From the NCBI GenBank assembly GCA_001821055.1, contig MHRT01000005.1:109533-154377 (forward strand): a stretch of 44,845 nt of DNA, in the 5' to 3' direction. Positions 2,910 to 43,950 of the stretch are shown in pieces. Numbering within the stretch: position 1 is the stretch's first letter; each line of letters begins with the position of its first letter. The notes beneath the pieces were generated by a model. It saw nothing but the letters and a program-made list of their open reading frames with translations, had not been told where the DNA came from and searched no databases. The translations under genes were made by a program, and so were the position numbers. The DNA is from Candidatus Taylorbacteria bacterium RIFCSPHIGHO2_12_FULL_45_16. Its GTDB lineage: Bacteria; Patescibacteriota; Minisyncoccia; Phycocordibacterales; PALSA-1337.

Positions 2910-3726
2910 ACATCCGCGCCGGTTTCTCAGGCAAATCCTTGGCCTGACGATTGTTCTGATCGTGGCGGCGGTGTCTGCCATACAATTTTTCACACCGCAC
3001 TTTTTGCCGAGTTTGTTCACGGCCGTAGCCCGACCATTTTGGCGCGTGGAATTTTCCATGAAAAGCGGTGCGCTTCATTCCATTGAGTCATTGTTGAATG
3101 AAAAAGAGCTTTTGATACGCCAATTGTCTGAAATCCGTGTTCGTCTTGACACTATTGAGGCGACTGAATTGGAAAATGTTGAGTTGAAAGCGCTTTTGGG
3201 GAGAGAGAGAGTATTTTCAACTGGAACATCTACGATTGAAACAACGACAAAGCTGGGGACTTTTGAAAAGAATGGGAACCTCGGTATCTTGGCGGCCGTT
3301 CTCAAACGTCCACCACTATTAGCATATGATGAAATAATCATAGATATCGGGCGTGATTATGATATCTCTACGAGCAGTTTAGTGTATGCCCCAGGCGATG
3401 TCCTGATTGGTCGAGTATTTGATGTGCTCACGACTACCGCCAAGGTCAAGTTTTTTTCTTCTCCCGGCGAATTATACCCTATCTCGATTGGACCGAAGCA
3501 TTCAGCCGCCACGGCGATCGGTCGTGGTGGTGGACAGTACGAAGCGCAAGTGTCTCGTGACATTGACGTGGAAGAAGGGGATTTTGTGCTCAATTCTGGT
3601 CTGAATGATAAACCATTCGGTTTTGTTTCCGCTGTGCTTCTTGATCCGACGCAACCGTTCAAAACTGTATTATTCGCGTCGCCGGTGAATATATATCAAC
3701 TGAGATGGGTCCTTATTAAGAAGTAG
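2887..3726 (+). CDS. mreC: rod shape-determining protein MreC
   Basis: N-terminal TM, coiled coil ending ENVELKALL, beta domain (IIIDIG, LIGRV); follows mreB. Confidence 0.88.
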   Translation: MIYLQTHKHPRRFLRQILGLTIVLIVAAVSAIQFFTPHFLPSLFTAVARPFWRVEFSMKSGALHSIESLLNEKELLIRQLSEIRVRLDTIEATELENVELKALLGRERVFSTGTSTIETTTKLGTFEKNGNLGILAAVLKRPPLLAYDEIIIDIGRDYDISTSSLVYAPGDVLIGRVFDVLTTTAKVKFFSSPGELYPISIGPKHSAATAIGRGGGQYEAQVSRDIDVEEGDFVLNSGLNDKPFGFVSAVLLDPTQPFKTVLFASPVNIYQLRWVLIKK

Positions 3727-7963: not shown

Positions 7964-9073
7964 ATGTCCCTCTCTATCGGCATCGTCGGCCTACCAAACG
8001 TCGGTAAATCAACGCTATTTAACGCTCTTACCCGAAAGAGCGTGCTCGTGGCCAACTATCCTTTTGCCACGATAGATCCGTCAGTTGGTGTCGTAGCCGT
8101 GCCCGATGAACGTCTGTCTAAACTCTCGGCTTTTTCAAAGTCGGCAAAAACCGTTCCGGCAGCCATAGAATTTGTAGACATTGCCGGGTTGGTCAAGGGT
8201 GCATCCGATGGCGAGGGCCTAGGCAACCAATTCCTCACCAACATCCGCGAGACGGATGCTATCGCCGAGATAGTGCGCATTTTTGAAGATGATAATATTA
8301 TCCATGTGGATGGCAAGATCAACCCTCTAAAAGACATTGAAGTTATCAACTTGGAACTTATTTTGGCTGATCTGCAAACAGTGGCCAAGCGTCAGGCTAG
8401 TCTGGCCCGCGAGATCAAAGCCGGCAAAAAAGAGGCCATTATAGAAAATGGTTTGGTCGAAAAAATCATCACCTTATTAGAAGTCGGCAAGATGGCTTCA
8501 ACGGTTGTGGCAGATGAATTTGAAGCGCCTTTTTTGAAACAACTGCACCTGCTTACTTCAAAACCGTTCATGTATGTCTTGAATAAGAAGTCCGGCGGTA
8601 AAAATTTGGATGAACCTCGAGGTTTCACTTTGGATGAAAGATACCTAGCTCTAATGGCGTTTTTCAAAGAAAATAATGCCAAGTGGGTGATTGTGGATGC
8701 GGGCATCGAACATGAACTCAAAGATATTGATGACAAAGAAAAACAGGAACTTCGCGAGGTCCTAGGCTCCAAAGATGACGGCATCGATAACCTGATCAAA
8801 AAGGGTTACGAGCTTCTGAATCTGATTACCTACTTCACGACCGGAGTAGACGAATCCCGCGCCTGGACTATTATTCGCGGCTGGACTGCACCTGAAGCCG
8901 GCACGGCTATCCATAGTGATTTCAAAGATAAATTCATCCGCGCGGAAGTTATCGAGTGGGACAAGCTACTCGAATCCGGTTCATTTGCCACGGCGCGCGA
9001 GAAAGGTCTCTTGAGGACAGAAGGGAAGGAGTATGTAGTCAAGGATGGGGATGTGGTGGAGTTTAGAATCTAG
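7964..9073 (+). CDS. ychF: ribosome-associated ATPase YchF
   Basis: GIVGLPNVGKST, ANYPFATI, DIAGLVKGAS; C-terminus EGKEYVVKDGDVVEFRI. Confidence 0.97.
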   Translation: MSLSIGIVGLPNVGKSTLFNALTRKSVLVANYPFATIDPSVGVVAVPDERLSKLSAFSKSAKTVPAAIEFVDIAGLVKGASDGEGLGNQFLTNIRETDAIAEIVRIFEDDNIIHVDGKINPLKDIEVINLELILADLQTVAKRQASLAREIKAGKKEAIIENGLVEKIITLLEVGKMASTVVADEFEAPFLKQLHLLTSKPFMYVLNKKSGGKNLDEPRGFTLDERYLALMAFFKENNAKWVIVDAGIEHELKDIDDKEKQELREVLGSKDDGIDNLIKKGYELLNLITYFTTGVDESRAWTIIRGWTAPEAGTAIHSDFKDKFIRAEVIEWDKLLESGSFATAREKGLLRTEGKEYVVKDGDVVEFRI

Positions 9074-9086
9074 CCATAAAATTACT

Positions 9087-9347
9087 ATGAAATATATCCA
9101 AATAAAAACTGAAAATTTAGAATTCTATATTGAAATCGACGATCAAAGAATTGAAGTTAGAAAAGTTGAACTTGCAAACGAAGGATTACTCGGATTCGCA
9201 AGTAAAGATATTCAATTTCATGGAACGACTCTTGATCCAAAACCAATTCTCGAAAAGCATGATTTCAAAGAAACTCAAATTTCTAAAGAAGAATTTGAAC
9301 AGATTTGGGACCGTGCGATTCTGACTCAGAAGACGGTAGTGTCATAG
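9087..9347 (+). CDS. cassette 1: small acidic protein, DUF6881-like (possible immunity protein)
   Basis: 86 aa; YIEIDDQRIEVRKVE...GFAS...ISKEEFEQIW pattern; stop codon lies inside repeat 2. Confidence 0.6.
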   Translation: MKYIQIKTENLEFYIEIDDQRIEVRKVELANEGLLGFASKDIQFHGTTLDPKPILEKHDFKETQISKEEFEQIWDRAILTQKTVVS

Positions 9348-9387
9348 AGTTTAGGATTTGAGAAAATTGAGTTATAATAATTTCATC

Positions 9388-9819
9388 ATGGCGACATTAA
9401 AAGAAGATATCAAAACAGGTTCAAATTGGATTAGCGCAGCATTAAAATCATCAGGATATAAGGCTGACTTTTCTCTAAAGAGCTTGAAAGAAGTTGATAG
9501 ATTCTTTGATGAGCATTCCAAGGATGGAAAACCGACAGATGGTGGATTACTGTCAGAACAAATAGGAAATAGACTATTCTGTATTGGTTCCTATGTTGGA
9601 GAAGTTATTCGAAAGAAGATTGGTGGAGAATGGATTGTGAATGATTCTGATCCACAAGGTGAAATAAATATAACTCTAAAAACTACACACGGAACTCAGA
9701 TGTGGCCTGTCCAAAGAGTAATGAAAAGACTTCAAAATGGTGCAGAGGATTCAATTGCTGCATATGGGAGTTTTATTGGAACTGAAGACACGAAGAAACC
9801 ATTTTGGAAGTTTTGGTAA
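9388..9819 (+). CDS. cassette 2: hypothetical protein (immunity-like)
   Basis: 143 aa; DFSLKSLKEVD, IGSYVGEVIR, GGEW, C-terminal KKPFWKFW; TATAAT at 9373-9378. Confidence 0.7.
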   Translation: MATLKEDIKTGSNWISAALKSSGYKADFSLKSLKEVDRFFDEHSKDGKPTDGGLLSEQIGNRLFCIGSYVGEVIRKKIGGEWIVNDSDPQGEINITLKTTHGTQMWPVQRVMKRLQNGAEDSIAAYGSFIGTEDTKKPFWKFW

Positions 9820-9861
9820 CTTCTGAAGATGGTGGTGTCATAGAGTTTAGAATTTAGATAC

Positions 9862-9890
9862 TTGACAATAGCTACTATAAGGTGTATAAT
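9862..9890 (+). promoter_or_regulatory. consensus sigma70 promoter of cassette 3
   Basis: TTGACA-17 bp-TATAAT. Confidence 0.85.
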
Positions 9891-9901
9891 TATACAAGAT
9901 T

Positions 9902-10078
9902 ATGAAAAAAATTATATATCAAAACCATGAAGTTCAGCCTGGTGTCATCGTTGCTTTTTTGGAGGGAAATCCTTCAATAAAAGGCTTCGGGACCTCTGGC
10001 AGTGAGGCTGTTGGAAACCTCATTGAGATGCATCCCGATGTGTTTGGGATCGTCACTGAAAATCAAATTGAACACTAA
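9902..10078 (+). CDS. cassette 3: 58-aa protein, HicB-N-like
   Basis: Manually translated MKKIIYQNHEVQPGVIVAFLEGNPSIKGFGTSGSEAVGNLIEMHPDVFGIVTENQIEH; has its own promoter and terminator. Confidence 0.6.
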   Translation: MKKIIYQNHEVQPGVIVAFLEGNPSIKGFGTSGSEAVGNLIEMHPDVFGIVTENQIEH

Positions 10079-10100
10079 TCCTTAACCTACCACCAAGGTT

Positions 10101-10128
10101 AAAACCCACCTCGCGAGAGGTGGGTTTT
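10101..10128. terminator. intrinsic terminator, possibly bidirectional
   Basis: aaaacccacctc-gcga-gaggtgggtttt, perfect 12-bp stem. Confidence 0.85.
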
Positions 10129-10174
10129 CTGTTGGAAAAATACGGCAGTGTGATGGAGTTTAAGATTTAGGCAA

Positions 10175-10272
10175 CAAAAAACCCGCAGTTGCCCACGGGT
10201 TGCTTCTCAGAGAGAAGGTAAGACCTGTTTATTAGTCCGGAGAGCCAGGTCACATCCACTGATTCCAGATAT
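10175..10272 (-). ncRNA. cassette 4: candidate ~100-nt small RNA
   Basis: Minus-strand promoter, internal stems gacctg/caggtc and cttctc/gagaag, terminator acccgtgg-gcaa-ctgcgggt followed by a U tract. Confidence 0.55.
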
Positions 10273-10278
10273 GCTAAT

Positions 10279-10307
10279 AGTTTAGCAGGGTACTAATTTG
10301 TTGTCAA
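10279..10307 (-). promoter_or_regulatory. sigma70 promoter of the candidate sRNA
   Basis: TTGACA (10307-10302), 17 bp, TGc-TAAACT (10284-10279). Confidence 0.75.
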
Positions 10308-10510
10308 GTACTTAAATTGCAAATTATTGAAAACCTATATTTAGAGCCATATATAAGATGGTATTCGAATAGAGTTTAAGATTTAGACAAAAGAAAGCTG
10401 GAAACACGAGATTTTCGGCTCAAGATTTGACCATTGACACCAAAACGTCCATATGCTATTATTTAGCACTGTACTGTGACTTGTGTTGCTGTACGGCACC
10501 TTTAAAAAAT

Positions 10511-10702
10511 ATGCACTTATCGAGACTCACGCATTTTCGGCAACGAACTGGACGATCCAGGCGTTTTCAGTGGACCGCTGATCAAATTCATTACCAATCA
10601 CCCCAGCAGATTGTCAGGGGTGGAGGAGGTCCAATGATTGGTATCATGATAATCGTCATAATCACGATTGCCATGTGCGTCGGCAGCTTGTTCTTCCAGT
10701 AG
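10511..10702 (+). CDS. small basic protein with a C-terminal TM helix
   Basis: 63 aa; promoter TTGACA(10434)-17-TATTAT upstream. Confidence 0.5.
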   Translation: MHLSRLTHFRQRTGRSRRFQWTADQIHYQSPQQIVRGGGGPMIGIMIIVIITIAMCVGSLFFQ

Positions 10703-10790
10703 CAGTCCTCCGATCGCACGCACCGCCGGGCAGACCTTCAGTCACCGACATTTTTTGTAAAAACTCCTTTTTTGAGCTATGATTTGACCC

Positions 10791-13700
10791 ATGAAGAAGA
10801 ATACTGACAAGCGAGGTTTATCCTCGCTCAAACCTTACGACCATAAAACCATTGAGAAAAAGTGGCAGAAATATTGGGAGTCCCGAGGTGGAACCTCGGT
10901 GTCGGCAAAGAAATTTTACGGCTTGATCGAGTTTCCATACCCATCCGGTGACGGTCTGCATGTTGGCCACATCCGCAGCAATACGGCCATGGATGTCATC
11001 GCCCGCAAACGCCGCGCGCAGGGTTACAACGTGCTTTACCCTATAGGTTGGGATGCTTTTGGTCTACCAACGGAAAATTATGCCATCAAGAATGGTGTTC
11101 AGCCGGCTGTAGTGACAAAGAAAAATACAGATATTTTCCGCCGTCAACTAAAGGCGCTTGGCTTTTCATTTGATTGGTCACGCGAAATAAATACAACCGA
11201 TCCGGCATACTACAAATGGACGCAGTGGATTTTTCTGCAATTTCTGAAGAAAGGCCTGGCCTACAAGAAGAAGATGACCATCAATTGGTGTCCAAAGGAT
11301 TTGATCGGCCTAGCGAACGAAGAAGGGATTAACGGTGCCTGTGAGCGTTGCGGTACGCCGGTGGAAAAGCGCGAAAAAGAGCAGTGGATGTTGGCGATAA
11401 CGAAGTATGCGGACAAGCTATTGTCAGGATTAAACGCAAAGGTGGCTGAAGATGGCACGTTGATTGAGGATGACTTCGGTACCCCGTTGTTTACGCAAAT
11501 GACAGAAACTTCGGCGATTCGTCTGGAGCTTCCATATGTAGAACGCGATGCGATTATGGCGATTGTAAAGCATTGGTCAGAGGATAAATACATCGGCCTC
11601 AAATGGAAAAAGGTGGCGTGGAAAACCCTGATCACTGGAGGACCAGAAGGTAATCAGACTTTAGAAGAGGCGGCAATAGCAGAAATTGCTGAAGAAACCG
11701 GTTACAAAAATCCGAAACTTATAAGGCATTTAGATCGAGTGGATTCAAAATTTTTCCACGTGCCAAAAAATATAAATAGATACGCCCATTTTGATGTGAT
11801 GTATTTCGAACTTCAAAATAGTGACCGGAATGAAATAACGTCCGAAGAACAAGGAAACCATGATGTGGAGTGGCTCTCAAAAGAAGAAATGACCAAGTTT
11901 TTGACGCCAGCTTCGCATCAATATGTTTGGAAGAAATTTCTCAACCCTGATTTGAATGTGAATTCGTACGGTAAACCCCTGCTCGATTGGAAAGAATCGA
12001 TAAAAGATTCACAGCGGAACTGGATAGGGAAGTCGGAGGGCGCGGAACTGACTTTCAAAATCAAGGCAGCCAATTTGGACAAGCAAATAAAAGTTTTTAC
12101 CACCAGGCCCGACACTTTGTTTGGTGTGACCTATGTTGTTTTGGCGCCGGAACATGCCCTGGTCAAGGAATTATTGCCAAATGTCGAAAATAAAGAAGAA
12201 GTCGAAGCGTACATAGGGAAAGTCAAAAAAGAGTCAGACATCGAGCGGACTGACGCCAAGAAAGAAAAAACCGGCGTGGAATTGAAGGGTGTAAAAGCGG
12301 TAAACCCGGCGAACAATGAAGAAGTTCCGGTCTGGATTGCCGACTATGTACTGGCTGATTATGGCACCGGAGCGGTTATGGCTGTGCCGGCGCACGATGA
12401 GCGTGACGGAGATTTTGCCAAAAAATGCGGATTGCCACAAAGAGAAGTCGTCGCGCCGATGATCAATGTGACTGAGGGTGACTTTGCCTTTCGGCCGGGA
12501 GTCAAGATAGTCGATAGGCAGTGCGTTCTGGCCATTGTGAAGCATTGGGAAAAAGACGAGTATCTGTGTCTGACTTCAAAGAGACATGGTTGGACGACTT
12601 TTGTCATTGGCGGCATCGATCAGGGTGAAGATGCCGTCGCGGCGGCCAAGCGGGAAATAACGGAGGAGACCGGCTTCACGGATTTTGCGTCATTTAGACC
12701 GCTGGGCGGGCATGTGTATGCCAAACATTTCGCGCCGCACAAGAATGAAAATCGTTCGGCCAGACTCAATGGTTTTTACGTTGAACTAAAAAGTGGAACA
12801 CAACAGCCGGTGGCCGAACACGAAGCGAACCATCAGGAGATTTCCTGGATTCCGCGCAAAGACATTGCCAATAGACTGCACCCCAAAATAACCGATTGGG
12901 CTTTTTGGCAGAGATTTGAGAGTGATAAGGCATATGTAGGCGAAGGAATTTTGGAAAATTCCGGCAAATTCGACGGCCAAGATTCCGAATCGGCCAAAAA
13001 AGAAATTACCGAAGCTGTCGGCGGCAAATGGGTTACAACCTTCAAACTTCGCGACTGGATCTTTTCCCGCCAGCGCTATTGGGGCGAACCGATACCAGTG
13101 GTGCACTGCCAAAAATGTGGCATCGTGCCGGTTCCAGAAAAGGATCTGCCCGTAAAGTTGCCAAAGGTCAAAAATTACAAGCCGACGGAGACCGGCGAAT
13201 CACCGCTGGCCGCTATTTCCAAGTGGGTGAATACCAAGTGTCCGCAGTGTGTCGCTGATAAAAAAAAGACTAAGTATTTTATTTTTGATTTTGACGGGGT
13301 TTTGGGAAATACATGGGATATCATGAATTCAGCAAAAGTCAGGATGGGCGACGCGGAGACAATAGACGAGGCGGCAAAAGATTCACTATCCCACTTTGAT
13401 AAAAAACCGATTGATGCGAGAAACCATTTTTTGACGCCTGAACAAAGGAAGGAAAGACAAGAGTGGATAACGACATTTGGTAAACATCTTTCGGAATCAA
13501 ATTTTGGCTTGTTTGACGAGTTTATCAAGGAATTAAAGAAAATAAAAAATGTAAAACTGGCAGTTGCATCTTCTGGTTCTGCGCAATATGTTTTGCCCGC
13601 ACTCAAAAAATCCGGTTTGAAATTCACGCATATACTGGCATATGAGGATCATCATTCCAAAGAAGAAAAAGTCGAGCGTATTTGCGAGGATTGGGGTATA

Positions 13701-14858
13701 GACATAAAAAACGCATATTATTTTACCGATACAAAAGCTGATATTCTTGAATTGGAAAACATTATGGACAGAAAACAAATTGTCGGTTGTGCTTGGGGGT
13801 ATCATGGGTATGATAGATTGAAGGAATTACTTCCAGAAAAAAACATTCTCTTACACCCCAAAGATATTCATAGTTTTTTCAACACTAATTGCTCTGCCAA
13901 GCGCGAAACTGACACCATGCCCAACTGGGCCGGGTCGAGCTGGTACTATTTGCGTTACGCTGATCCGAAGAATAAAAAGGCGTTTGCCGATCCGAAAAAA
14001 TTGAAGTATTGGACACCAGTTGATTGGTACAACGGTGGGATGGAGCATACGACACTTCACCTCCTCTACTCACGATTTTGGCATAAATTCTTGTTTGATC
14101 TCGGTTTGGTGCCGACCAACGAACCATATCTCAAAAGGACTTCTCATGGCCTTATCTTGGCCAAAGGAGGCGAGAAGATGTCCAAATCAAAGCGAAATGT
14201 CATCAATCCTGACGATATCATTGAAACAGTCGGAGCGGATTCGTTGCGTTTGTATGAAATGTTTATGGGACCATTTGATCAATCCATAATTTGGAACACG
14301 GAGAATATAGCGGGAGTTCGGCGTTTTATTGAAAGAGTTTGGAAATTACAAGAAAGAATTGTGCCAAAAACAGATGAAAAAATCAGTGATTTTATGCTGG
14401 TCAACAAGATTATCCACAAAGCCATCAAGAAAGTCAGTGATGATATTGAGGGTATGCGCTTTAACACTGCTATAAGTATTCTGATGATCACACTCAATGA
14501 ACTGGAAAAGGCCGAAGCTGTGGATGACGAACAATATGGAACATTTTTGCAATTGCTGGCACCATTTGCTCCGCATGTGGCCGAAGAATTGTGGTCGTCA
14601 CTTGGTCATAAGAACTCGATTGGCACAGTCTCATGGCCAATCTACGATCCTGCTCTGGCGGCCGATACTGAGATTACAATCATGGTCCAGATCAATGGCA
14701 AAACACGCGGCTCATTTGTGGCGCCTGTAGATACCTCTAAGGAAGAGCTGGAAAAGCGCGCTAAAGCTATTCCAGAGTCTGCAAAATGGCTAAAAGGAAA
14801 GGATGTGAAGAAAGTTATCGTCGTACACAATAAATTGGTCAACATTATCACCAGCTAG
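10791..14858 (+). CDS. leuS: leucyl-tRNA synthetase with two Nudix and one HAD insertion
   Basis: PYPSG..LHVGH, FTTRPDT, GTGAVMAVPAHD, SRQRYWG, RETDTM, KMSKS; 1355 aa. Confidence 0.96.
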   Translation: MKKNTDKRGLSSLKPYDHKTIEKKWQKYWESRGGTSVSAKKFYGLIEFPYPSGDGLHVGHIRSNTAMDVIARKRRAQGYNVLYPIGWDAFGLPTENYAIKNGVQPAVVTKKNTDIFRRQLKALGFSFDWSREINTTDPAYYKWTQWIFLQFLKKGLAYKKKMTINWCPKDLIGLANEEGINGACERCGTPVEKREKEQWMLAITKYADKLLSGLNAKVAEDGTLIEDDFGTPLFTQMTETSAIRLELPYVERDAIMAIVKHWSEDKYIGLKWKKVAWKTLITGGPEGNQTLEEAAIAEIAEETGYKNPKLIRHLDRVDSKFFHVPKNINRYAHFDVMYFELQNSDRNEITSEEQGNHDVEWLSKEEMTKFLTPASHQYVWKKFLNPDLNVNSYGKPLLDWKESIKDSQRNWIGKSEGAELTFKIKAANLDKQIKVFTTRPDTLFGVTYVVLAPEHALVKELLPNVENKEEVEAYIGKVKKESDIERTDAKKEKTGVELKGVKAVNPANNEEVPVWIADYVLADYGTGAVMAVPAHDERDGDFAKKCGLPQREVVAPMINVTEGDFAFRPGVKIVDRQCVLAIVKHWEKDEYLCLTSKRHGWTTFVIGGIDQGEDAVAAAKREITEETGFTDFASFRPLGGHVYAKHFAPHKNENRSARLNGFYVELKSGTQQPVAEHEANHQEISWIPRKDIANRLHPKITDWAFWQRFESDKAYVGEGILENSGKFDGQDSESAKKEITEAVGGKWVTTFKLRDWIFSRQRYWGEPIPVVHCQKCGIVPVPEKDLPVKLPKVKNYKPTETGESPLAAISKWVNTKCPQCVADKKKTKYFIFDFDGVLGNTWDIMNSAKVRMGDAETIDEAAKDSLSHFDKKPIDARNHFLTPEQRKERQEWITTFGKHLSESNFGLFDEFIKELKKIKNVKLAVASSGSAQYVLPALKKSGLKFTHILAYEDHHSKEEKVERICEDWGIDIKNAYYFTDTKADILELENIMDRKQIVGCAWGYHGYDRLKELLPEKNILLHPKDIHSFFNTNCSAKRETDTMPNWAGSSWYYLRYADPKNKKAFADPKKLKYWTPVDWYNGGMEHTTLHLLYSRFWHKFLFDLGLVPTNEPYLKRTSHGLILAKGGEKMSKSKRNVINPDDIIETVGADSLRLYEMFMGPFDQSIIWNTENIAGVRRFIERVWKLQERIVPKTDEKISDFMLVNKIIHKAIKKVSDDIEGMRFNTAISILMITLNELEKAEAVDDEQYGTFLQLLAPFAPHVAEELWSSLGHKNSIGTVSWPIYDPALAADTEITIMVQINGKTRGSFVAPVDTSKEELEKRAKAIPESAKWLKGKDVKKVIVVHNKLVNIITS

Positions 14859-18516: not shown

Positions 18517-18948
18517 TCACCCTCCGGCGACAGTCTGAGTCTTTTCAAAGTCTTGGGCCAATAATCTGAGAAGGATTCCAAATCCGATGGGTTTTGAGAT
18601 GAATCTGCTGATTCCGAAGCTAGTCAGGTCACCAAAATATGTTTCTGACGTACCGGACCAAAGCCAGATAACATAAGTCCTTGAGCCTGATTGGATTCTT
18701 TTGGCCAACTCAATCCCTGTCATCCCATGACCCATTTTGTAATCGGTCAAGATTAGATCATAAGGCCTCTCATCTGCTTCACTAATCAAGACCAAACTGT
18801 AAGCTTCCTCACCGTTGGATGCAGTTGTGACGATATGACCGTCATGTTCAAGTATCCTCAGAGCTGTTTTGCGCACATCGGCTTCGAATTCCACTACCAA
18901 TATATTAAGTTTCGTTTTCAATTGTTCCTTATTTGTTTTTCCAACCAC
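18517..18948 (-). CDS. stand-alone response-regulator receiver protein
   Basis: ILVVE, DLILTDYKM, TGIEL, ISKP; no kinase in the window. Confidence 0.8.
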   Translation of the reverse strand: MVGKTNKEQLKTKLNILVVEFEADVRKTALRILEHDGHIVTTASNGEEAYSLVLISEADERPYDLILTDYKMGHGMTGIELAKRIQSGSRTYVIWLWSGTSETYFGDLTSFGISRFISKPIGFGILLRLLAQDFEKTQTVAGG

Positions 18949-18986
18949 ATTGGTCAGCTACTAAAAATTATGCTAGCATGATAAAT

Positions 18987-20147
18987 ATGAATAGTCAAGT
19001 AAATTATCCTCAAACAACTGCGCAGAGCAATCATGTGACTACGGCTCCGTCCACTTTACTCACGGGTTGTAGACCTACGCACAAGCGAGTATTCGTGGGC
19101 ATGTCCGGTGGCGTTGATTCGTCGGTTTCGGCGGTATTGCTCAAAAAGGCTGGATATGATGTTACGGGCGTTTTTATCAAAGTTTGGCAACCGGATTGGC
19201 TCATGTGCACCTGGCGTGAAGATCGTCGCGATGCCATGCGTGTTGCCGCGTGTCTGGATATCCCGTTTGTCACTCTAGATTTAGAGAAAGAATACAAAAA
19301 AGACGTAGTCGATTATATGATTTCAGAATACAAGGTCGGTAGAACGCCAAATCCAGATGTTATGTGTAATCGGTATGTTAAATTTGGTGGATTTTTTAGT
19401 TGGGCAATGGGACAAGGCGCTGATTATGTGGCCACTGGACACTATGCCCAAGTATTGAAGCGACTATCCAATGTCTTAGATGATCGCTTCAAACTTGTCG
19501 TAAGTACGGACAAAAACAAAGACCAGACTTATTTTTTATGGACTCTTACTCAAGATCAGCTCTCCAAAACGCTCTTTCCGGTCGGGGACTTGGAAAAACT
19601 TGAAGTCCGAAAACTGGCTAGAAAATTTAGACTGCCAAATGCCGAGAAAAAAGACAGTCAAGGTCTGTGTTTCATCGGCAAGATTGATGTCAAAGAGTTC
19701 CTGTCTCATTACATCACGCCCAAGAAGGGTGTCGTGCTTGATATTCACGGCCAAACAGTCGGTAAACACAATGGTGCGTTTTTCTACACGATCGGCGAGC
19801 GCCATGGATTTCTTATCACGAAGAAAACCTCAGATGACAAGCCGTTATATGTTGTGGCAAAAAATATTGCGGCAAATACGATTACGGTTTCACACAAGAC
19901 CGCTGACGGAGAATTGCCGAGTGTCAAAACAGAAATAATATTGAAAGACATGAATTGGAATCAAGACATCGTCCCGATGAACAAAAACCTTCAAGTTCGT
20001 TCACGATATCGAGAATCATTGCAAGACGCGCGTCTTTCTGGATCCGATGCTGTCATCTTTAAAAAACCGCAGTCTACTCTTTCATCCGGTCAATCACTTG
20101 TTGTGTACGATGGTGAAGTCTGTCTTGGTGGTGGGATTATAGTGTAA
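18987..20147 (+). CDS. mnmA: tRNA 2-thiouridylase MnmA
   Basis: GMSGGVDSS, TPNPDVMCN, ATGHY, KDQTYFL, DSQGLCF; start chosen from TGcTAGCAT 7 nt upstream. Confidence 0.95.
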   Translation: MNSQVNYPQTTAQSNHVTTAPSTLLTGCRPTHKRVFVGMSGGVDSSVSAVLLKKAGYDVTGVFIKVWQPDWLMCTWREDRRDAMRVAACLDIPFVTLDLEKEYKKDVVDYMISEYKVGRTPNPDVMCNRYVKFGGFFSWAMGQGADYVATGHYAQVLKRLSNVLDDRFKLVVSTDKNKDQTYFLWTLTQDQLSKTLFPVGDLEKLEVRKLARKFRLPNAEKKDSQGLCFIGKIDVKEFLSHYITPKKGVVLDIHGQTVGKHNGAFFYTIGERHGFLITKKTSDDKPLYVVAKNIAANTITVSHKTADGELPSVKTEIILKDMNWNQDIVPMNKNLQVRSRYRESLQDARLSGSDAVIFKKPQSTLSSGQSLVVYDGEVCLGGGIIV

Positions 20148-38332: not shown

Positions 38333-38601
38333 TGCAAAAGTATAAAAATACTTATATTTCCGTTGCATTTTACGTGCTGGCGCTTTTGTTTTATTTTATA
38401 TTAAACTCACCGGCGACTGCACCTTATTTCATCTGCGCAGTTATAGGTATCTTCTTTGCTCATATGAGTAACAGGAAGAAGGAATCATCTTGGGGAGGAA
38501 ATCTTTTACTGGTAGTTGGAATCTTACTGGTTTTGTTTCCTTTCTTAATAGTGCCCCTCTCATTCATGCTGTCAGGAACTTTGTACAATATTAGTCATTA
38601 G
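38332..38601 (+). CDS. small 3-TM protein, paralog B
   Basis: YVLALL...SNRKKESSWGG; TAATG overlap. Confidence 0.7.
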   Translation: MQKYKNTYISVAFYVLALLFYFILNSPATAPYFICAVIGIFFAHMSNRKKESSWGGNLLLVVGILLVLFPFLIVPLSFMLSGTLYNISH

Positions 38602-38675: not shown

Positions 38676-41399
38676 TTAGTACGGCGAAACCCCACGATAG
38701 AATTTCATCGGAGCGTTCGTCGAACTTTGATCGTAGAAACGAACCAAGCCATTAGTGTTGGCGAGGACTGCGATGTCTGTCCAATTGAGAAGGTTAGTCG
38801 AGGCTTGGATGTGATAATCAAACCCTGCCTCTCCTGTCAACTGCTGTACCATCGCTCCGTTCGTCGTGCTTCCTGTAAATGACAACGAGAACGGCTGACT
38901 TACGCCGATCTGATTAAGTGCGATGTTCGTCACAGTCACGACTGACTGAATGTTTGTGAACGGATCGAGACGGAAGCCCAAGATGTGGCTACTGTTCGCA
39001 ACAGCATTCGGAAACCTAAACGTATAGTGGTTTGTGTTCACGATTCGCTCATCAACTGTTCCGATGATTTGGTCATCCCATAGCACCGACAATACTCCTT
39101 GCGCTCCATTGGTACTCGTAAATTGAGTATTGAAGGAGACAACATTGATTGGATTGGTGCTGGAAACGACAGTTGCAATCCATGCCGGTGACCCACTGAA
39201 CAGTTTGAGAGATTCGATCCATTTCTGAATCGTTCCCGTGTCACTCTGTATGATTGGCGATTGAGTAAAGTCAATCACAGTATTCACGTACGACGGCGGC
39301 GTCACTTGTATATCTGGCGTGCACGTCGGATCAGCAGTGCCGAGAAGTTGAGCTGGATCATTTCCTGGCGTATAACTTGGCACGCCTGAACTCCAACCGC
39401 CACCTTCTTTACTTAAAGGAAAACCAAATCCTTGGTAATCCGTAGTTACGTTACCTGTAATCGTGTTTGAGTAGAACTCGTATGGCCAGCTATGTGAGGT
39501 GATAGTCCTAACGCAAGGTTCCATTAAACCAGTAGCAGATGACCTAAACTTCGCACCAACGATCTTGTGCGGATCGAGCGGTGTAACGTCCAAGTTGTAT
39601 GCATGGTCAAGGGGACTTTCAGTGAACGGCCCAGTTAGAACGCTTCCGAATTGTGTCAGTGAATCACGTGAGAAGTACTGATCTGCCCAATCCGCTCCAC
39701 TACCGTATCTTCCTACCCCTTCAAATTCTTTACCTACATAGGGATCAAGAAACGTGCAATGGACAGTTGTACTCGGTGATAAGGCTTTGATCCTCTCGCT
39801 TGCCGCTTGAATCAGACCAGCTCCAGCACTATGTGATATCAGATGAACATGTGTCCATCCTTGCGCAGCAATGCAATCTCCCAACATTTTACCCTCTTGT
39901 TTCGCGTTGTTTAACGCATGCGTAGGATAAAATGTCCACGCCTTATCGATCCATTTGTAGGTATTGACTTGCCATGTGGTCAAACTATTTGCCACGAGAT
40001 AACTATTTATAGCATTCGACATCCCATCAAGCCATGATACATCAGGTTGTGGAAATGTCGGTGTTACGAATAGTTGCCACCCGTGCGTTGCCAATATCAA
40101 GTTACTCTTTCCCGATCCTTTGGACACACAATTTGCATACGTAGGTTGAGACGGCTGTGCCTCAATAGCATCTCTCCAGCCCGCAGATAGCGGATCAAGC
40201 AGAAATGCATGCGTCTGTCCCGACGGGTTCAATCCGTAGCCGACGATCTGACCCTTGTCATTGATAGCGGTTGCAGACTGAAGTGTCCACGGAGTGCCGT
40301 GCTGTATAGTCACATCGTTCAAGTCCTTCATTGAGCCGTTCGAGAAAAGAAAAGCCCGATTGCCAGACGAACCGACCACGTGAGCATTCACATTGATTCC
40401 GTAGGCATCTGATGATCCACCACTAAGAACGCCGAGATCTTGCATCGTTCCATTTTGGTAGTCATAGAACATTGCGTGATGCGCACCTCCGCTGGTGGTT
40501 GCGTAACCAACAACTTCTGCGTACATATTGATTGCATAGGCCGCGCTTTCATTGCCTCCCAATGTACCGATGTCCTGCATTACACTGTCGGCATAGAGGA
40601 AGGCGTGAACATGCCCATTTGTCGTCGAACTACCTGCAATATCGCCGTAGTCGTTGATGCCATAGGCGATACTTAGATGTGAACCAGTATTGCCAGGGAA
40701 AGTCCCGATATCCTGCATTGAGCCTCCAGAATAGAGGTATGCATGATAGTAGGCATTTCCACTGATGAGAGACCAGCCAACGATAGAATCGTTATTATTG
40801 ATCCCAAATGCCTGACTGTCCGATCCACCCAATGTGCCCAGATCGCTCATGGAACCACCTGCGTACAAGAATGCGTGAGCGCTTGAGCTACTGTATGCCG
40901 CCGCACCTACGACCTTTCCCGCAGAGTTGACCTCGTGTGCATTGCTGTCAGGGCCTCCAAGAGTACCCAGATTTTGCATTGAGCCGTTCGAATACAGGAA
41001 GGCATAAGCGTTAGCTCTGCCAACTACTTTGCCATCGTTATTGATCCCATTAGCGAAACTATCAGTGCCTCCTAGGGCACCGAGATCAATGACATTGTAA
41101 TCGTATTCAGGAGCAGGATCGTTCGGACTTGGCCCATCCAGTGCCATTATGATTGGTCGTACTGGCCGCGCAGGTTTTACTGGCCCGACGAAAGGCAGGG
41201 GATTATCTCCCCATTCTTTCAGCCAGTCCAGATACGCTGGCGGATAGATTTCCAAGGGCATCTTACTTCCCATGATTTTTTCGAGTGTTTCCGTGCCAGT
41301 CGGCTGATTTGTTTCTTCGGTTTGAGCCGAGACCTTCACGATCGTTGTTATCGCCATGATGAGAATCATGGTCGCCAGTAGGAGGACATTTCTTTTCAT
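38676..41399 (-). CDS. secreted protein: HAF repeats, alpha/beta-hydrolase-like domain and C-terminal STNL..W/FYR tail
   Basis: Signal peptide; seven DLGTLGG..S.A..IN..G.VVG..HAFLY repeats; THGW and ISHSAG. Confidence 0.85.
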   Translation of the reverse strand: MKRNVLLLATMILIMAITTIVKVSAQTEETNQPTGTETLEKIMGSKMPLEIYPPAYLDWLKEWGDNPLPFVGPVKPARPVRPIIMALDGPSPNDPAPEYDYNVIDLGALGGTDSFANGINNDGKVVGRANAYAFLYSNGSMQNLGTLGGPDSNAHEVNSAGKVVGAAAYSSSSAHAFLYAGGSMSDLGTLGGSDSQAFGINNNDSIVGWSLISGNAYYHAYLYSGGSMQDIGTFPGNTGSHLSIAYGINDYGDIAGSSTTNGHVHAFLYADSVMQDIGTLGGNESAAYAINMYAEVVGYATTSGGAHHAMFYDYQNGTMQDLGVLSGGSSDAYGINVNAHVVGSSGNRAFLFSNGSMKDLNDVTIQHGTPWTLQSATAINDKGQIVGYGLNPSGQTHAFLLDPLSAGWRDAIEAQPSQPTYANCVSKGSGKSNLILATHGWQLFVTPTFPQPDVSWLDGMSNAINSYLVANSLTTWQVNTYKWIDKAWTFYPTHALNNAKQEGKMLGDCIAAQGWTHVHLISHSAGAGLIQAASERIKALSPSTTVHCTFLDPYVGKEFEGVGRYGSGADWADQYFSRDSLTQFGSVLTGPFTESPLDHAYNLDVTPLDPHKIVGAKFRSSATGLMEPCVRTITSHSWPYEFYSNTITGNVTTDYQGFGFPLSKEGGGWSSGVPSYTPGNDPAQLLGTADPTCTPDIQVTPPSYVNTVIDFTQSPIIQSDTGTIQKWIESLKLFSGSPAWIATVVSSTNPINVVSFNTQFTSTNGAQGVLSVLWDDQIIGTVDERIVNTNHYTFRFPNAVANSSHILGFRLDPFTNIQSVVTVTNIALNQIGVSQPFSLSFTGSTTNGAMVQQLTGEAGFDYHIQASTNLLNWTDIAVLANTNGLVRFYDQSSTNAPMKFYRGVSPY

Positions 41400-41783: not shown

Positions 41784-42854
41784 ATGGAAGCTACAGAGCT
41801 AAAATCCATCCAAGAAGAGGCAGTCCGCCAAGGAGCTGAAATTAAGGCTGTTCTTGATTCAGTAAAAGGCTACACATCAGAGTTAGACACAATAAAGGAG
41901 GAGATAAGTTCAAAACGTCGTGCGGTTGCCCAGATCAGCACCAATGCGGAAACGAGAAAGACTGAAATTGAGGCTTCTCAATCGGTGATTGTTTCTTTGG
42001 AGACTAAAGCAAAAGAATTAGTCCAGAAAATTGAAACTGAAAATACAAAACTTGCGGAATATATTAGTACTTTTGAAAATACGCGAACAAAACTAGATGG
42101 CGGGGATGATGGCCTTGAAGCTGTATTCACTTGGGCACAACAGCAGAAAGAGGAGATTGGGAAACTCCTTGGACAATCACGCTTAGATCAAGCGGCGGTG
42201 ACAGAAATGAAGACGACTTCCGCAAAAGATACCGAGGGTATCGCAGGTCACAAAAAAGAAGTCGAGGGTTATCGTAAAGAAATCGAAAAGGTGTACGGAT
42301 TCATCAACGGACAGGGATTGGCGCATTCATTTAGTGACCGGCAGAAAAAATTACATCTTCCACTAATTCTGTGGAGTATAATGTTGTTCAGCGCGACATT
42401 CTTGGTCACCTGGGCTTTGTACGAAGTATTCAAAGAACTACCAATCGATATTGTCTCTGGCAAGAGAATATTTGACCCCTCCTCTCTTTTCTACAGGCTC
42501 TCTTTTGTTTCCCCAATTTTGCTTATCTTCTTCGTAGCATTGAGACAATATTCCCGTGAGCGTCGTTTGCTTGAAAGCTATGCGTTCAAAGCCGCCACAG
42601 CAAAGGCGTTAGAGAGCTACACGGAGATATTGGCACGCAGGTTTCCTGAAGAAAAATTTAGAAACCGCATTCTTGCATTCGTCCTTCATGCAATGGTGGG
42701 GATATATAGACATCCGAATAATGAACTGACGAAGGTCGAGGATGAAAAGGAGTGGGCGGAGAGTTTTGGTGAGATGGTTGATAAGGTCAGCAAACCTGTA
42801 GTTGAAAACGCCAAAAATGCTGTTTCCTCCGTTATTCCTGGGCTTAATAAGTAA
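41784..42854 (+). CDS. coiled-coil protein with two C-terminal TM helices
   Basis: ~190-aa heptad-rich region, two hydrophobic helices, YAFKAATAKALESY. Confidence 0.7.
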   Translation: MEATELKSIQEEAVRQGAEIKAVLDSVKGYTSELDTIKEEISSKRRAVAQISTNAETRKTEIEASQSVIVSLETKAKELVQKIETENTKLAEYISTFENTRTKLDGGDDGLEAVFTWAQQQKEEIGKLLGQSRLDQAAVTEMKTTSAKDTEGIAGHKKEVEGYRKEIEKVYGFINGQGLAHSFSDRQKKLHLPLILWSIMLFSATFLVTWALYEVFKELPIDIVSGKRIFDPSSLFYRLSFVSPILLIFFVALRQYSRERRLLESYAFKAATAKALESYTEILARRFPEEKFRNRILAFVLHAMVGIYRHPNNELTKVEDEKEWAESFGEMVDKVSKPVVENAKNAVSSVIPGLNK

Positions 42855-43068: not shown

Positions 43069-43950
43069 ATGAGTATGAACCCAAACATTGTTTTGCGGGA
43101 CTACTTTGAGGAATATCTGACATTCAGAGCGCAAGAGGGAAATGTATCAAAGACGCTAGTGGAGCATAGGAGATTTTTAGAAGGACCATTAGAAACAGCA
43201 GTGGGTCACAAGAAGGTAGAAGATTTGCGGATTATTGACAGGGCGGCACTGATTGAAGCGGGCAAGCCTTATGGGATTTATGGATCTCAAAGAGCTGTAG
43301 TTACGTTCAGGCAGTTGTGTCGCTTTCTTAATCAGCGCGGTACTAAACTGCCATTTGATTGGCGAGACATCGAGACACCAAAAGTCCCTAGTAAGATGGT
43401 CGATTATCTGACGAGCGATGAGATTGAGAAAATACGTAATGCGTTCAATCCCAATAGTATGCCTGGATTACGCACTCGTAGCTTGATCGAGTTTTTGCTC
43501 GATACAGGTATGAGGATAGGGGAAGCGTGCAGTGTAAATAGAGACGATGTGAACTTTGACACCCATGAGATACGCATTAAGAATTGCAAAACGCATGAGG
43601 ACAACGTGGTTTACTTCACAGATCGAAGTGCGGAATGGATCAAGATGTATTTAGGCGCACGGCGCGACAAACATCCTGCATTATTCCTTTCCGGCCGAGA
43701 TCGTATGCTTCCTTTGACTTCACGAAACTACATCAGAGCGAAGACGAAAAATCTCGGTATCAAGAAAAAGATCGGCCACCATGTTTTTAGAAAAACATGC
43801 GGTACATATCTCTTACAAAACCAAGTTGACATCAAAAGCGTGCAAACATTACTAAGGCACAAAAGCGAACGCACCACGCTTAGGTATTATATTGGTATTG
43901 ATAAGGAGAAATGCAAAGTGATGCACCAAGCAGTGATGGCGGGCATATAG
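43069..43950 (+). CDS. tyrosine recombinase/integrase
   Basis: TGMRIGE (R), HVFRK (HxxR), LLRHKS (H), TTLRYY (Y); adjacent to attR. Confidence 0.93.
   Translation: MSMNPNIVLRDYFEEYLTFRAQEGNVSKTLVEHRRFLEGPLETAVGHKKVEDLRIIDRAALIEAGKPYGIYGSQRAVVTFRQLCRFLNQRGTKLPFDWRDIETPKVPSKMVDYLTSDEIEKIRNAFNPNSMPGLRTRSLIEFLLDTGMRIGEACSVNRDDVNFDTHEIRIKNCKTHEDNVVYFTDRSAEWIKMYLGARRDKHPALFLSGRDRMLPLTSRNYIRAKTKNLGIKKKIGHHVFRKTCGTYLLQNQVDIKSVQTLLRHKSERTTLRYYIGIDKEKCKVMHQAVMAGI

Follow-up and report, generated by a model that had tools for sequence, protein, structure and literature searches.

The 44,845-nucleotide stretch analysed here (the window; positions 109,533 to 154,377 of the forward strand of contig MHRT01000005.1, numbered from its first letter) comes from Candidatus Taylorbacteria bacterium RIFCSPHIGHO2_12_FULL_45_16. 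This genome (G000; 754,352 bases, 98% complete, 12 contigs) carries, directly behind the gene ychF, a tandem array of four short units, here called cassettes, each closed on its right by a copy of the ychF 3′ end, an arrangement for which we propose movement by a phage integrase. The local gene order is lysS, ychF, array, leuS (Table 1).

Results

Copies of the ychF 3′ end bound four small units

A repeat search of the window located five direct copies, 30 nt each, of the ychF 3′ end, at 9044, 9332, 9828, 10141 and 10357. Their spacings are 288, 496, 313 and 216 nt, there are zero indels among them, and they close with the stop codons TAG, TGA, TAG, TAG and TAG in order, confirming in all these respects an earlier description made by a model from the letters of this DNA and their open reading frames (ORFs), hereafter the sequence-only reading. 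The four extra copies are 63, 80, 70 and 63% identical to the ychF copy; the further claim that the distal copies are the most diverged therefore fails, divergence being non-monotonic. Alignment of the copies showed that the conserved site is about 33 nt long and begins 3 nt upstream of the 30-nt repeat, at a GAA codon.

These repeats stand far above background: the window contains five matches to a 15-nt core (at most one mismatch) where 0.15 would be expected, a count not reached in any of 100 shuffles, and a weight matrix run over the whole genome scored only these five copies above 16, the next best reaching 15.8. The plain 15-nt pattern gave one unrelated match, on the reverse strand of the same contig. 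In run X9, which is from another sample and is not flagged as a possible source, a single 2036-base contig spans 8891–10926 with zero differences, and all sampled words of the locus are present in eight other runs, which may be the source of this DNA. The small genome and the groundwater and soil origin agree with the label Patescibacteria used in the sequence-only reading.

Table 1. Features of the ychF–leuS region, in window coordinates (nt, nucleotides; aa, amino acids; GC, guanine-plus-cytosine fraction; attL, left attachment junction).
Feature	Position	Strand	Description
ychF	7964–9073	+	ORF, 369 aa; Pfam YchF-GTPase_C and MMR_HSR1
Native site copy, attL type	9041–9073	+	Last 11 ychF codons including stop; left arm GGG GAT GTG GTG, host-type
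Cassette u1	9074–9361	+	288 bp; ORF 9087–9347, 86 aa; site copy 9329–9361
Cassette u2	9362–9857	+	496 bp; ORF 9388–9819, 143 aa; site copy 9825–9857
Cassette u3	9858–10170	+	313 bp; promoter 9862–9890; ORF 9902–10078, 58 aa; terminator 10101–10128; site copy 10138–10170
Cassette u4	10171–10386	-	216 bp; no ORF; promoter 10307–10279; terminator 10201–10180; site copy 10354–10386 on the + strand
Trailing region	10387–10790	+	404 bases up to leuS; GC 0.458, host-like; closing site copy absent
leuS	10791–14858	+	ORF; conserved neighbour on the right of the hot spot

The contents of the units are as the sequence-only reading had described them, namely two small proteins, a promoter–gene–terminator unit and a candidate small RNA. 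The u1 protein belongs to Pfam DUF6881 (E 1e-14), and its ORF ends at a +1-frame TAG within its own site copy; the u3 promoter agrees with the consensus at 12 of 12 positions. In u4, a minus-strand promoter and terminator bracket a candidate small RNA of about 100 nt, for which a fold z-score of -1.28 lends no support to special structure beyond the terminator. A search of 8900–11000 against Rfam at E <= 1 returned three weak, chance-level matches, and neither u4 nor the leuS upstream region fitted a family.

The extra copies are a distinct version of the site

We aligned 46 non-native copies, which share the consensus GAA GAT GGT nGT GTn ATA GAG TTT AAG ATn TAn, with 12 native tails, which have GGG GAT GTG nTG GAG TTT in common. 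In translation the non-native copies read G-[GS]-V-I-E-F versus G-D-V-V-E-F in the host tail, and conservation drops abruptly at both edges of the 33 nt. Because their own consensus differs from the native tails, the extra copies represent a foreign version of the host tail and not a duplication of it, which replaces the idea that each cassette carries one replacement ychF tail: they are phage-type sites. The weight matrix separates the two as well, with 19.8 for the native copy in the window versus 37–52 for the cassette copies.

The consensus site (..aTAGagttTAAgattTAG) has stops in all three frames. ORFs stop inside the site in G000_u1, G004_u3 and G035c33_u1, and several cassette ORFs use the +1-frame TAG. 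The repeat search, in which no attC covariance model was applied, listed no inverted repeats inside the five window copies, and no dif-like dyad was noticed in the site on inspection by eye.

A temperate phage family uses the same site

In one congener, G036, a 37.7-kb element is flanked by two site copies (positions 297 and 37956 in the oriented stretch). It encodes a terminase large subunit, a major head protein, an endolysin, a Sak4-like protein and methyltransferases, and, at its right end, a 317-aa tyrosine integrase (PF00589) that ends about 355 bp before the right copy. A related prophage of 36.9 kb sits directly behind the native ychF tail of a second congener, G088; 23.4 kb of the two prophages align at 69–90%, their integrases are 99% identical and their left junctions are identical. 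Two further contigs begin within such an element, that of G087 inside the same integrase and that of G103 with the same right-end hairpin and site.

Metagenome contigs searched with the cassette-type pattern gave 55 loci, in 14 of which the integrase (88–100% identity) stands just upstream of a site copy. In two loci, L088 and L121, the order is integrase, site, phage left end, and positions 3550–4612 of L088 are 69% identical to the left end of the G088 prophage; with the site beside the integrase followed by the phage left end, this junction is the unintegrated phage attachment site (attP). Prophages flanked by attL and a right attachment junction (attR), an integrase near one end and an unintegrated attP were thus all found, in relatives and metagenome contigs rather than in the window. 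A collection of viral contigs contained 0 matches to the cassette-type site pattern and no phage of this family.

Comparison of attP, attL and attR showed that the terminal ...GATATAA always goes with the phage left end while the host-specific TTC of G088 stays with ychF, from which we infer a crossover within ~TTYARGAT. The integrase has a catalytic domain and a weak SAM-like core-binding domain, no arm-binding domain being detected, and this two-domain composition fits a short, simple site. As judged from these junctions, the repeat is the ~33-bp attachment site of a temperate phage family, and the ychF 3′ end is its chromosomal attachment site (attB). The sequence-only reading had proposed an undescribed system without an integrase; instead, the repeat serves a temperate phage family as attP/attB, and the tyrosine integrase of that family lies ~350 bp from the site.

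Arrays vary among relatives and recur in metagenomes

Orthologs of ychF were found in 56 of 61 relatives searched, and leuS lies within 6 kb downstream in 17 of the 20 relatives with fetched DNA, across a gap of -4 to 3087 bp whose content is mostly unrelated between genomes. A degenerate pattern run on 93 genomes of the genus found multiple site copies in 11 (G000, G003, G004, G025, G035, G036, G083, G087, G088, G107 and G113), and when the fetched stretches were scanned with the matrix, degenerate copies and further arrays, in G082 and G093, came to light as well. Small site-bounded units thereby occur in at least 12 of the 93, and relatives differ in both the number and the contents of their units, as had been predicted for a variable array.

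A stricter cassette-type pattern matched in 11 of 401 genomes of the order. Matches in other families are those in G164, G237, G265, G285, G310, G368, G369 and G461; those in G214 and G270 look like native tails. Besides the 14 integrase loci, the metagenome set comprises 28 loci with ychF, mostly showing the tail followed by one to three cassette-type copies, and 13 with neither gene. All of these prevalence counts are lower bounds, because the patterns miss degenerate copies and unassembled arrays and several ychF contigs end less than 1 kb downstream.

The sizes of the units fall into two classes. Within the genus there are 38 units of 67–657 bp (median 331.5) and the 2 prophages; the metagenome loci, reduced to 47 by removal of eight apparent duplicates, contain 39 intervals of 73–1513 bp with a median of 354. 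Taken together, 77 intervals measure at most 1.5 kb and 2 about 37 kb, and the gap between is empty.

Arrays are not confined to ychF. That of G004 begins 6 nt past the stop of mnmA, the ortholog of window positions 18933–20147 (Pfam tRNA_Me_trans), that of L095 has rnc plus a 116-aa ORF on one side and smc on the other, and those on G113:C5 and G035:C33 are at yet other places. The expected anchoring behind ychF consequently holds for many arrays and fails for these four.

Two observations concern ychF itself and its contigs. In G006, G020, G029, G034 and G043 the alignment of the gene is split in two by a variable insert that follows residue ~218–273 and keeps a single open frame, which is a lineage-specific insertion in the protein. 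The ychF contigs G013:C13, G005:C44, G035:C43, G033:C48, G030:C6 and G032:C12 stop 100–900 bases downstream of the gene, and assembly breaks at this hot spot hint at population heterogeneity or repeats. On one of them (L021, G035:C43), an inverted ychF-tail copy lies 43 nt past the native one (positions 84 and 127), at the very end of the contig, and may result from folding back of the assembly.

Arrays have whole cassettes in common

Cassette u3 is 78% identical to one unit of the six-copy array L095 over positions 5–283 of 283 bases. The similarity takes in promoter, ORF and terminator, its edges are the site copies, and the adjacent units are unrelated. Similarly, u4 matches unit 2 of the G035:C33 array at 81% over 135–155 nt, G003_u2 resembles G004_u3 (80% over 315 nt) and G004_u4 resembles G093_u1 (79% over 218 nt), the neighbours differing in the last two pairs. 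Right-end sub-families, consisting of terminator hairpin and site, are common to otherwise different units in G000, G003, G113 and G035. When the window array was compared with the 92 congeners, only u4 (in G035) and the right end of u3 (in G003 and G113) found matches; with three candidates scored per genome, u1 and u2 had no nucleotide relatives among them. Whole cassettes are therefore common to arrays at different positions, with homology bounded by the repeats, as the sequence-only reading had anticipated, and by this pattern of similarity the cassette is the unit of exchange.

Cassettes carry self-contained and apparently foreign genes

The units occur in both orientations and are self-contained. 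Plus-strand units often start with TTGACA a few bases past the preceding stop, and in minus-strand units a terminator abuts the left site and the promoter lies just before the right site. When 3 cassette proteins from the window and 10 from relatives were compared with Pfam, the sole families above the curated cut-off were DUF6881 and a SET domain, and a resemblance to pyrophosphatases was weak. Judged from translations alone, a number of unit ORFs encode strongly hydrophobic proteins, and several units have no ORF. PADLOC matched 0 of 10 cassette proteins.

The u2 protein has no Pfam match and belongs to an uncharacterised family, for which DUF3806, from an atlas, is only a lead. At E <= 0.001 it has 467 homologs; the 120 listed show 52–89% identity and include members of the Alphaproteobacteria, Planctomycetota and Streptomyces, with Xanthobacteraceae and Thermoguttaceae named. 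Because the GC of the window units is 0.31–0.40 (u1, 0.31) versus 0.447 for the genome, and because the u2 family is found in distant phyla, the cassette content looks foreign.

We compared all units and trailing regions with both prophages by blastn and found only the 24–38 nt site region and one further match of 24 nt, between G107_u3 and the interior of the G036 prophage; tblastx of the units against the prophages gave nothing at E <= 1e-4, and the units contain no integrase. By these comparisons, the small units are not recognisable debris of the G036/G088 phage. The suggestion that the spacers might be eroded ends of an integrase-bearing element at this site accordingly found no support in recognisable remnants.

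Other recombinases and neighbouring features

The absence of a recombinase near the array, part of the sequence-only reading, needs qualification: the window does encode a tyrosine recombinase (43069–43950, 293 aa, PF00589), yet 33 kb from the array and unrelated to it. The only PF00589 matches in G000 are at C1:59676 and at window positions 43405–43899. We rejected the window protein as the array enzyme, its orthologs among the 92 congeners being confined to two genomes with single site copies, G061 (91% identity) and G084 (83%, with a stop). Together with its neighbours at 38676–41399 and 41784–42854, it probably marks another mobile element near the window end. The same search also found a distant Xer-like relative, 31–39% identical, in 60 of the 92.

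Large serine recombinases were rejected too: they are present in G000 and G036 and absent from the array-bearing G003 and G039. Several such genes (frames of 463–549 aa, PF00239) lie on contigs C1, C7, C10 and C12 of G000, a high load for a 0.75-Mb genome. Distant homologs of the phage integrase, 46–57% identical, occur in G003, G106, G101, G067 and G007; their fetched flanks contain no ychF-like site, and they probably target other sites, which led us to discard them as candidates. The array-bearing genome G000 is in this sense without a relevant integrase, in agreement with the sequence-only reading.

The trailing region is probably chromosomal DNA, that is, the B′ side of the site and the region upstream of leuS, and has a strong promoter at 10434–10462 (11 of 12 consensus positions, with TG). 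It contains no convincing ORF and has no Rfam match; it may hold a leuS leader or another small RNA. The leuS ORF encodes 1355 aa, several hundred residues more than the usual LeuS length of ~800–860 aa; its translation has two similar inserted segments and another long insert, and relatives align with it piecewise only. No tRNA or transfer-messenger RNA genes were found in the window.

Discussion

Proposed movement of cassettes by a phage integrase

We consider it somewhat probable, at roughly 55%, that the arrays consist of integrase-less mini-cassettes accreted in tandem, and that these owe their movement to a phage integrase provided from elsewhere. The 33-bp sequence would then be the simple site of the phage tyrosine integrase and the ychF tail its main attB, and the phage would bring its own version of the tail as attP, so that integration would restore ychF. 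Each unit would comprise a single compact gene, equipped with a promoter, a terminator or both, and one phage-type site at its right end, and units would build up in tandem through site-specific recombination at a site copy. Integrase provided in trans by an infecting or resident phage would excise or shuffle the units, and a prophage inside an array, on excision via the outer sites, would take neighbouring units along (cis-mobilisation). Cassettes would remain after the phage departs, which would explain arrays in integrase-free genomes. The order in G036, namely cassette, prophage, cassette, cassette, is the intermediate that this model requires; integrase action on cassette sites, circular intermediates and phage transport are what we infer beyond it.

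Several results weigh against this reading. The genome that holds the window lacks an ortholog of the phage integrase, its closest tblastn matches (24% and 21% identical) being other recombinases, and integrase homologs occur in only 8 of the 93 congeners, the close type only in G036, G088 and G087. The free phage junctions of L088 and L121, and the doubtful one of L131, have a single site copy and zero cassettes. Three arrays of the genus that are not behind ychF lack a recognisable site copy at the left edge, an absence that could be explained if their attL were a hybrid formed at a secondary site. In only 5 of the 8 ychF-anchored arrays is the match to the consensus poorer in the last copy than in the first, a pattern too weak to bear out the predicted polarity of addition, and the third copy of the G083 array is host-type, which simple accretion does not predict. 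In assembled contigs over the locus, from runs X9, X10, X12 and X14, neither circles nor joints at the boundaries of sites were seen; parts of the locus are uncovered in X10, X12 and X14, and these gaps carry no weight. Moreover, the model leaves unexplained how cassettes acquire the 33-nt site.

Two details belong beside these results. In G083 (L070, G083:C1:152600-158000; copies at 102 and 1156), the host-type repeat includes codons before the tail, and two degenerate copies precede it. A joint from 8949 to 9826 (side 32, likeness threshold 88) most likely derives from another organism's ychF and was not used.

Alternative explanations

Decay offers a different account, in which each unit is what successive integrations and near-total deletion have left of a larger element with an integrase, either a phage or an island, from one of various families that use the same site. 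We judge it unlikely, with these points in its favour: an integrase-bearing prophage uses exactly this site, degenerate distal copies exist in G036 (at 38581), G082, G093 and G004, the source could be an element family not yet seen, and the model is established elsewhere, with cis-mobilisable elements (CIMEs) treated in the accessible part of a review (PMC5704250). What decay does not account for is that units and trailing regions, bar the one 24-nt match, resemble the prophages outside the site region neither in nucleotides nor in translation, that integrase fragments are absent and that nothing lies between the intervals of up to 1.5 kb and those of ~37 kb. Instead of fragments, the units are complete promoter–gene–terminator modules, some with ORFs that end in the site, and homology between arrays is bounded by the sites.

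Quite improbable, in our estimate, is a hot spot driven by the host, in which the 33-nt repeats would offer short homology for RecA-type recombination, or serve as sites of a host recombinase such as Xer, and DNA uptake and recombination would account for the gain, loss and exchange of cassettes without a phage integrase. The persistence of arrays where the phage integrase is absent would follow naturally from it, a distant Xer-like protein is available in 60 of 92 congeners, the entire ychF–leuS gap is variable even among close relatives without site copies, and the G083 array contains a host-type copy. However, the phage-type left arm is kept, under apparent constraint, across unrelated cassettes and families, and homology anchors need no such arm; inspection by eye saw no dif-like dyad in the site. 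The additional recombinase of the window has orthologs only in the single-copy G061 and G084, and large serine recombinases are missing from the array-bearing G003 and G039.

Metagenome assemblies do often break here, several ychF contigs stopping less than 1 kb past the gene, but an assembly artefact or chance repetition can be dismissed as having a negligible probability, given the X9 contig across the full array, the recovery of all sampled words in eight runs, the shuffled controls and the repeated occurrence of the same architecture in many genomes.

Relation to known systems

Among described elements, accretion at the 3′ end of a housekeeping gene is exemplified by ICESt1/ICESt3 at fda in Streptococcus thermophilus. 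The accessible text of PMC5704250 defines CIMEs as attachment-site-flanked, integrase-less elements decayed from integrative and conjugative (ICE) or integrative and mobilisable elements (IME), and sets out the accretion model. The present units resemble them in lacking an integrase, in being flanked by sites and in following one another in tandem behind a conserved protein-coding gene, at its 3′ end, where a related integrase-bearing element shares the site and can sit within the tandem, as in G036, and where transport would proceed through the outer sites, as proposed here. In keeping with the definition, they are flanked by the sites of a related integrase-bearing element and lack integration genes of their own; origin by decay is not indicated, there being no prophage similarity beyond the site and a bimodal size distribution. 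CIMEs also measure several kb, whereas the units here are single genes of 0.07–0.66 kb without similarity to the helper; that helper is a phage and not a conjugative element, and arrays here hold up to 5–6 units.

Integrons are built on a platform of intI, attI and the promoter Pc, from which cassettes that are mostly promoterless and in a single orientation are read; their attC sites are imperfect palindromes conserved in structure and variable in sequence, and attC clusters without an integrase are known as CALINs (clusters of attC sites lacking integron-integrases). The likeness lies in ordered single-gene cassettes, each with one recombination site at its 3′ side, in very variable content with cassettes common to several arrays, and in the absence of a neighbouring integrase. 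Here, in contrast, no intI/attI/Pc platform stands beside the array, the site is a 33-bp, sequence-conserved, non-palindromic phage attP and not an attC hairpin, many cassettes have their own promoter and either orientation (as with the 12/12 promoter of u3 and the minus-strand u4), and cassettes enter at the coding end of ychF.

Small modules bounded by short recombinase sites, with the recombinase encoded elsewhere, are also found as pdif modules on Acinetobacter plasmids, which are moved by XerC/XerD and have dif-like sites inverted in pairs. They lie on plasmids and depend on host Xer, whereas the present arrays are chromosomal, with direct repeats of a phage-integrase site.

In the islands of Prochlorococcus, tycheposons form arrays of partial tRNA copies, with kb-sized units that carry or carried their own integrase, as far as the accessible part of the preprint describes them (10.1101/2020.12.28.424599). 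As in the ychF arrays, integration recurs at a single site and displaces older elements inward, and extra partial target copies are spread over a hypervariable island in a streamlined genome; the tycheposon target is a tRNA and not a protein-coding tail, and the units here are tiny, with no integrase trace. Tandem genomic islands target ssrA in Dehalococcoides (PMC3146451), and Salmonella genomic island 1 (SGI1) integrates in tandem and at secondary sites at trmE (PMC2297512), both according to the available portions of these papers. In these, too, a conserved single-copy gene is targeted at its 3′ end by site-specific integration, and tandem copies and secondary sites occur, but the elements are large islands with their own integrase and not sub-kilobase cassettes. 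A pneumococcal prophage at ychF was set aside as a precedent, since the accessible part of its description places it upstream of ychF, in the promoter, and not at the 3′ end. Our literature search, whose coverage excluded most subscription journals, found no description of sub-kilobase cassette arrays at a phage attachment site or at ychF. Overall, the system looks like the logic of accretion and cis-mobilisation with integron-like features added, and not like a self-contained new system.

Significance for small-genome bacteria

A bolder reading, which we hold tentatively and at somewhat less than even odds, sees in these arrays the integron principle invented a second time, and independently, by groundwater bacteria with small genomes. 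A pool of self-expressing single-gene cassettes of ~0.3 kb, each bearing the 33-bp phage attP, would be inserted, excised and shuffled by the integrase, both in trans and by hitch-hiking, and would use the coding end of ychF, or now and then another locus, as a landing pad. If this were true, a phage would both drive and transport a cassette metagenome across species and families.

Few routes of gene gain are known in small-genome bacteria, and the locus is a recurrent site-specific gene store in many congeners and in other families of the order. The store holds small, apparently foreign genes, among them those for a SET-domain protein, DUF6881, a family common to distant phyla and putative small membrane proteins, as well as a candidate small RNA. 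If the phage integrase does move the cassettes, phages would supply accessory genes that are no permanent part of their own genomes, any small gene would become mobile given no more than a 33-bp site, and integron-like systems could emerge from ordinary phage integration modules.

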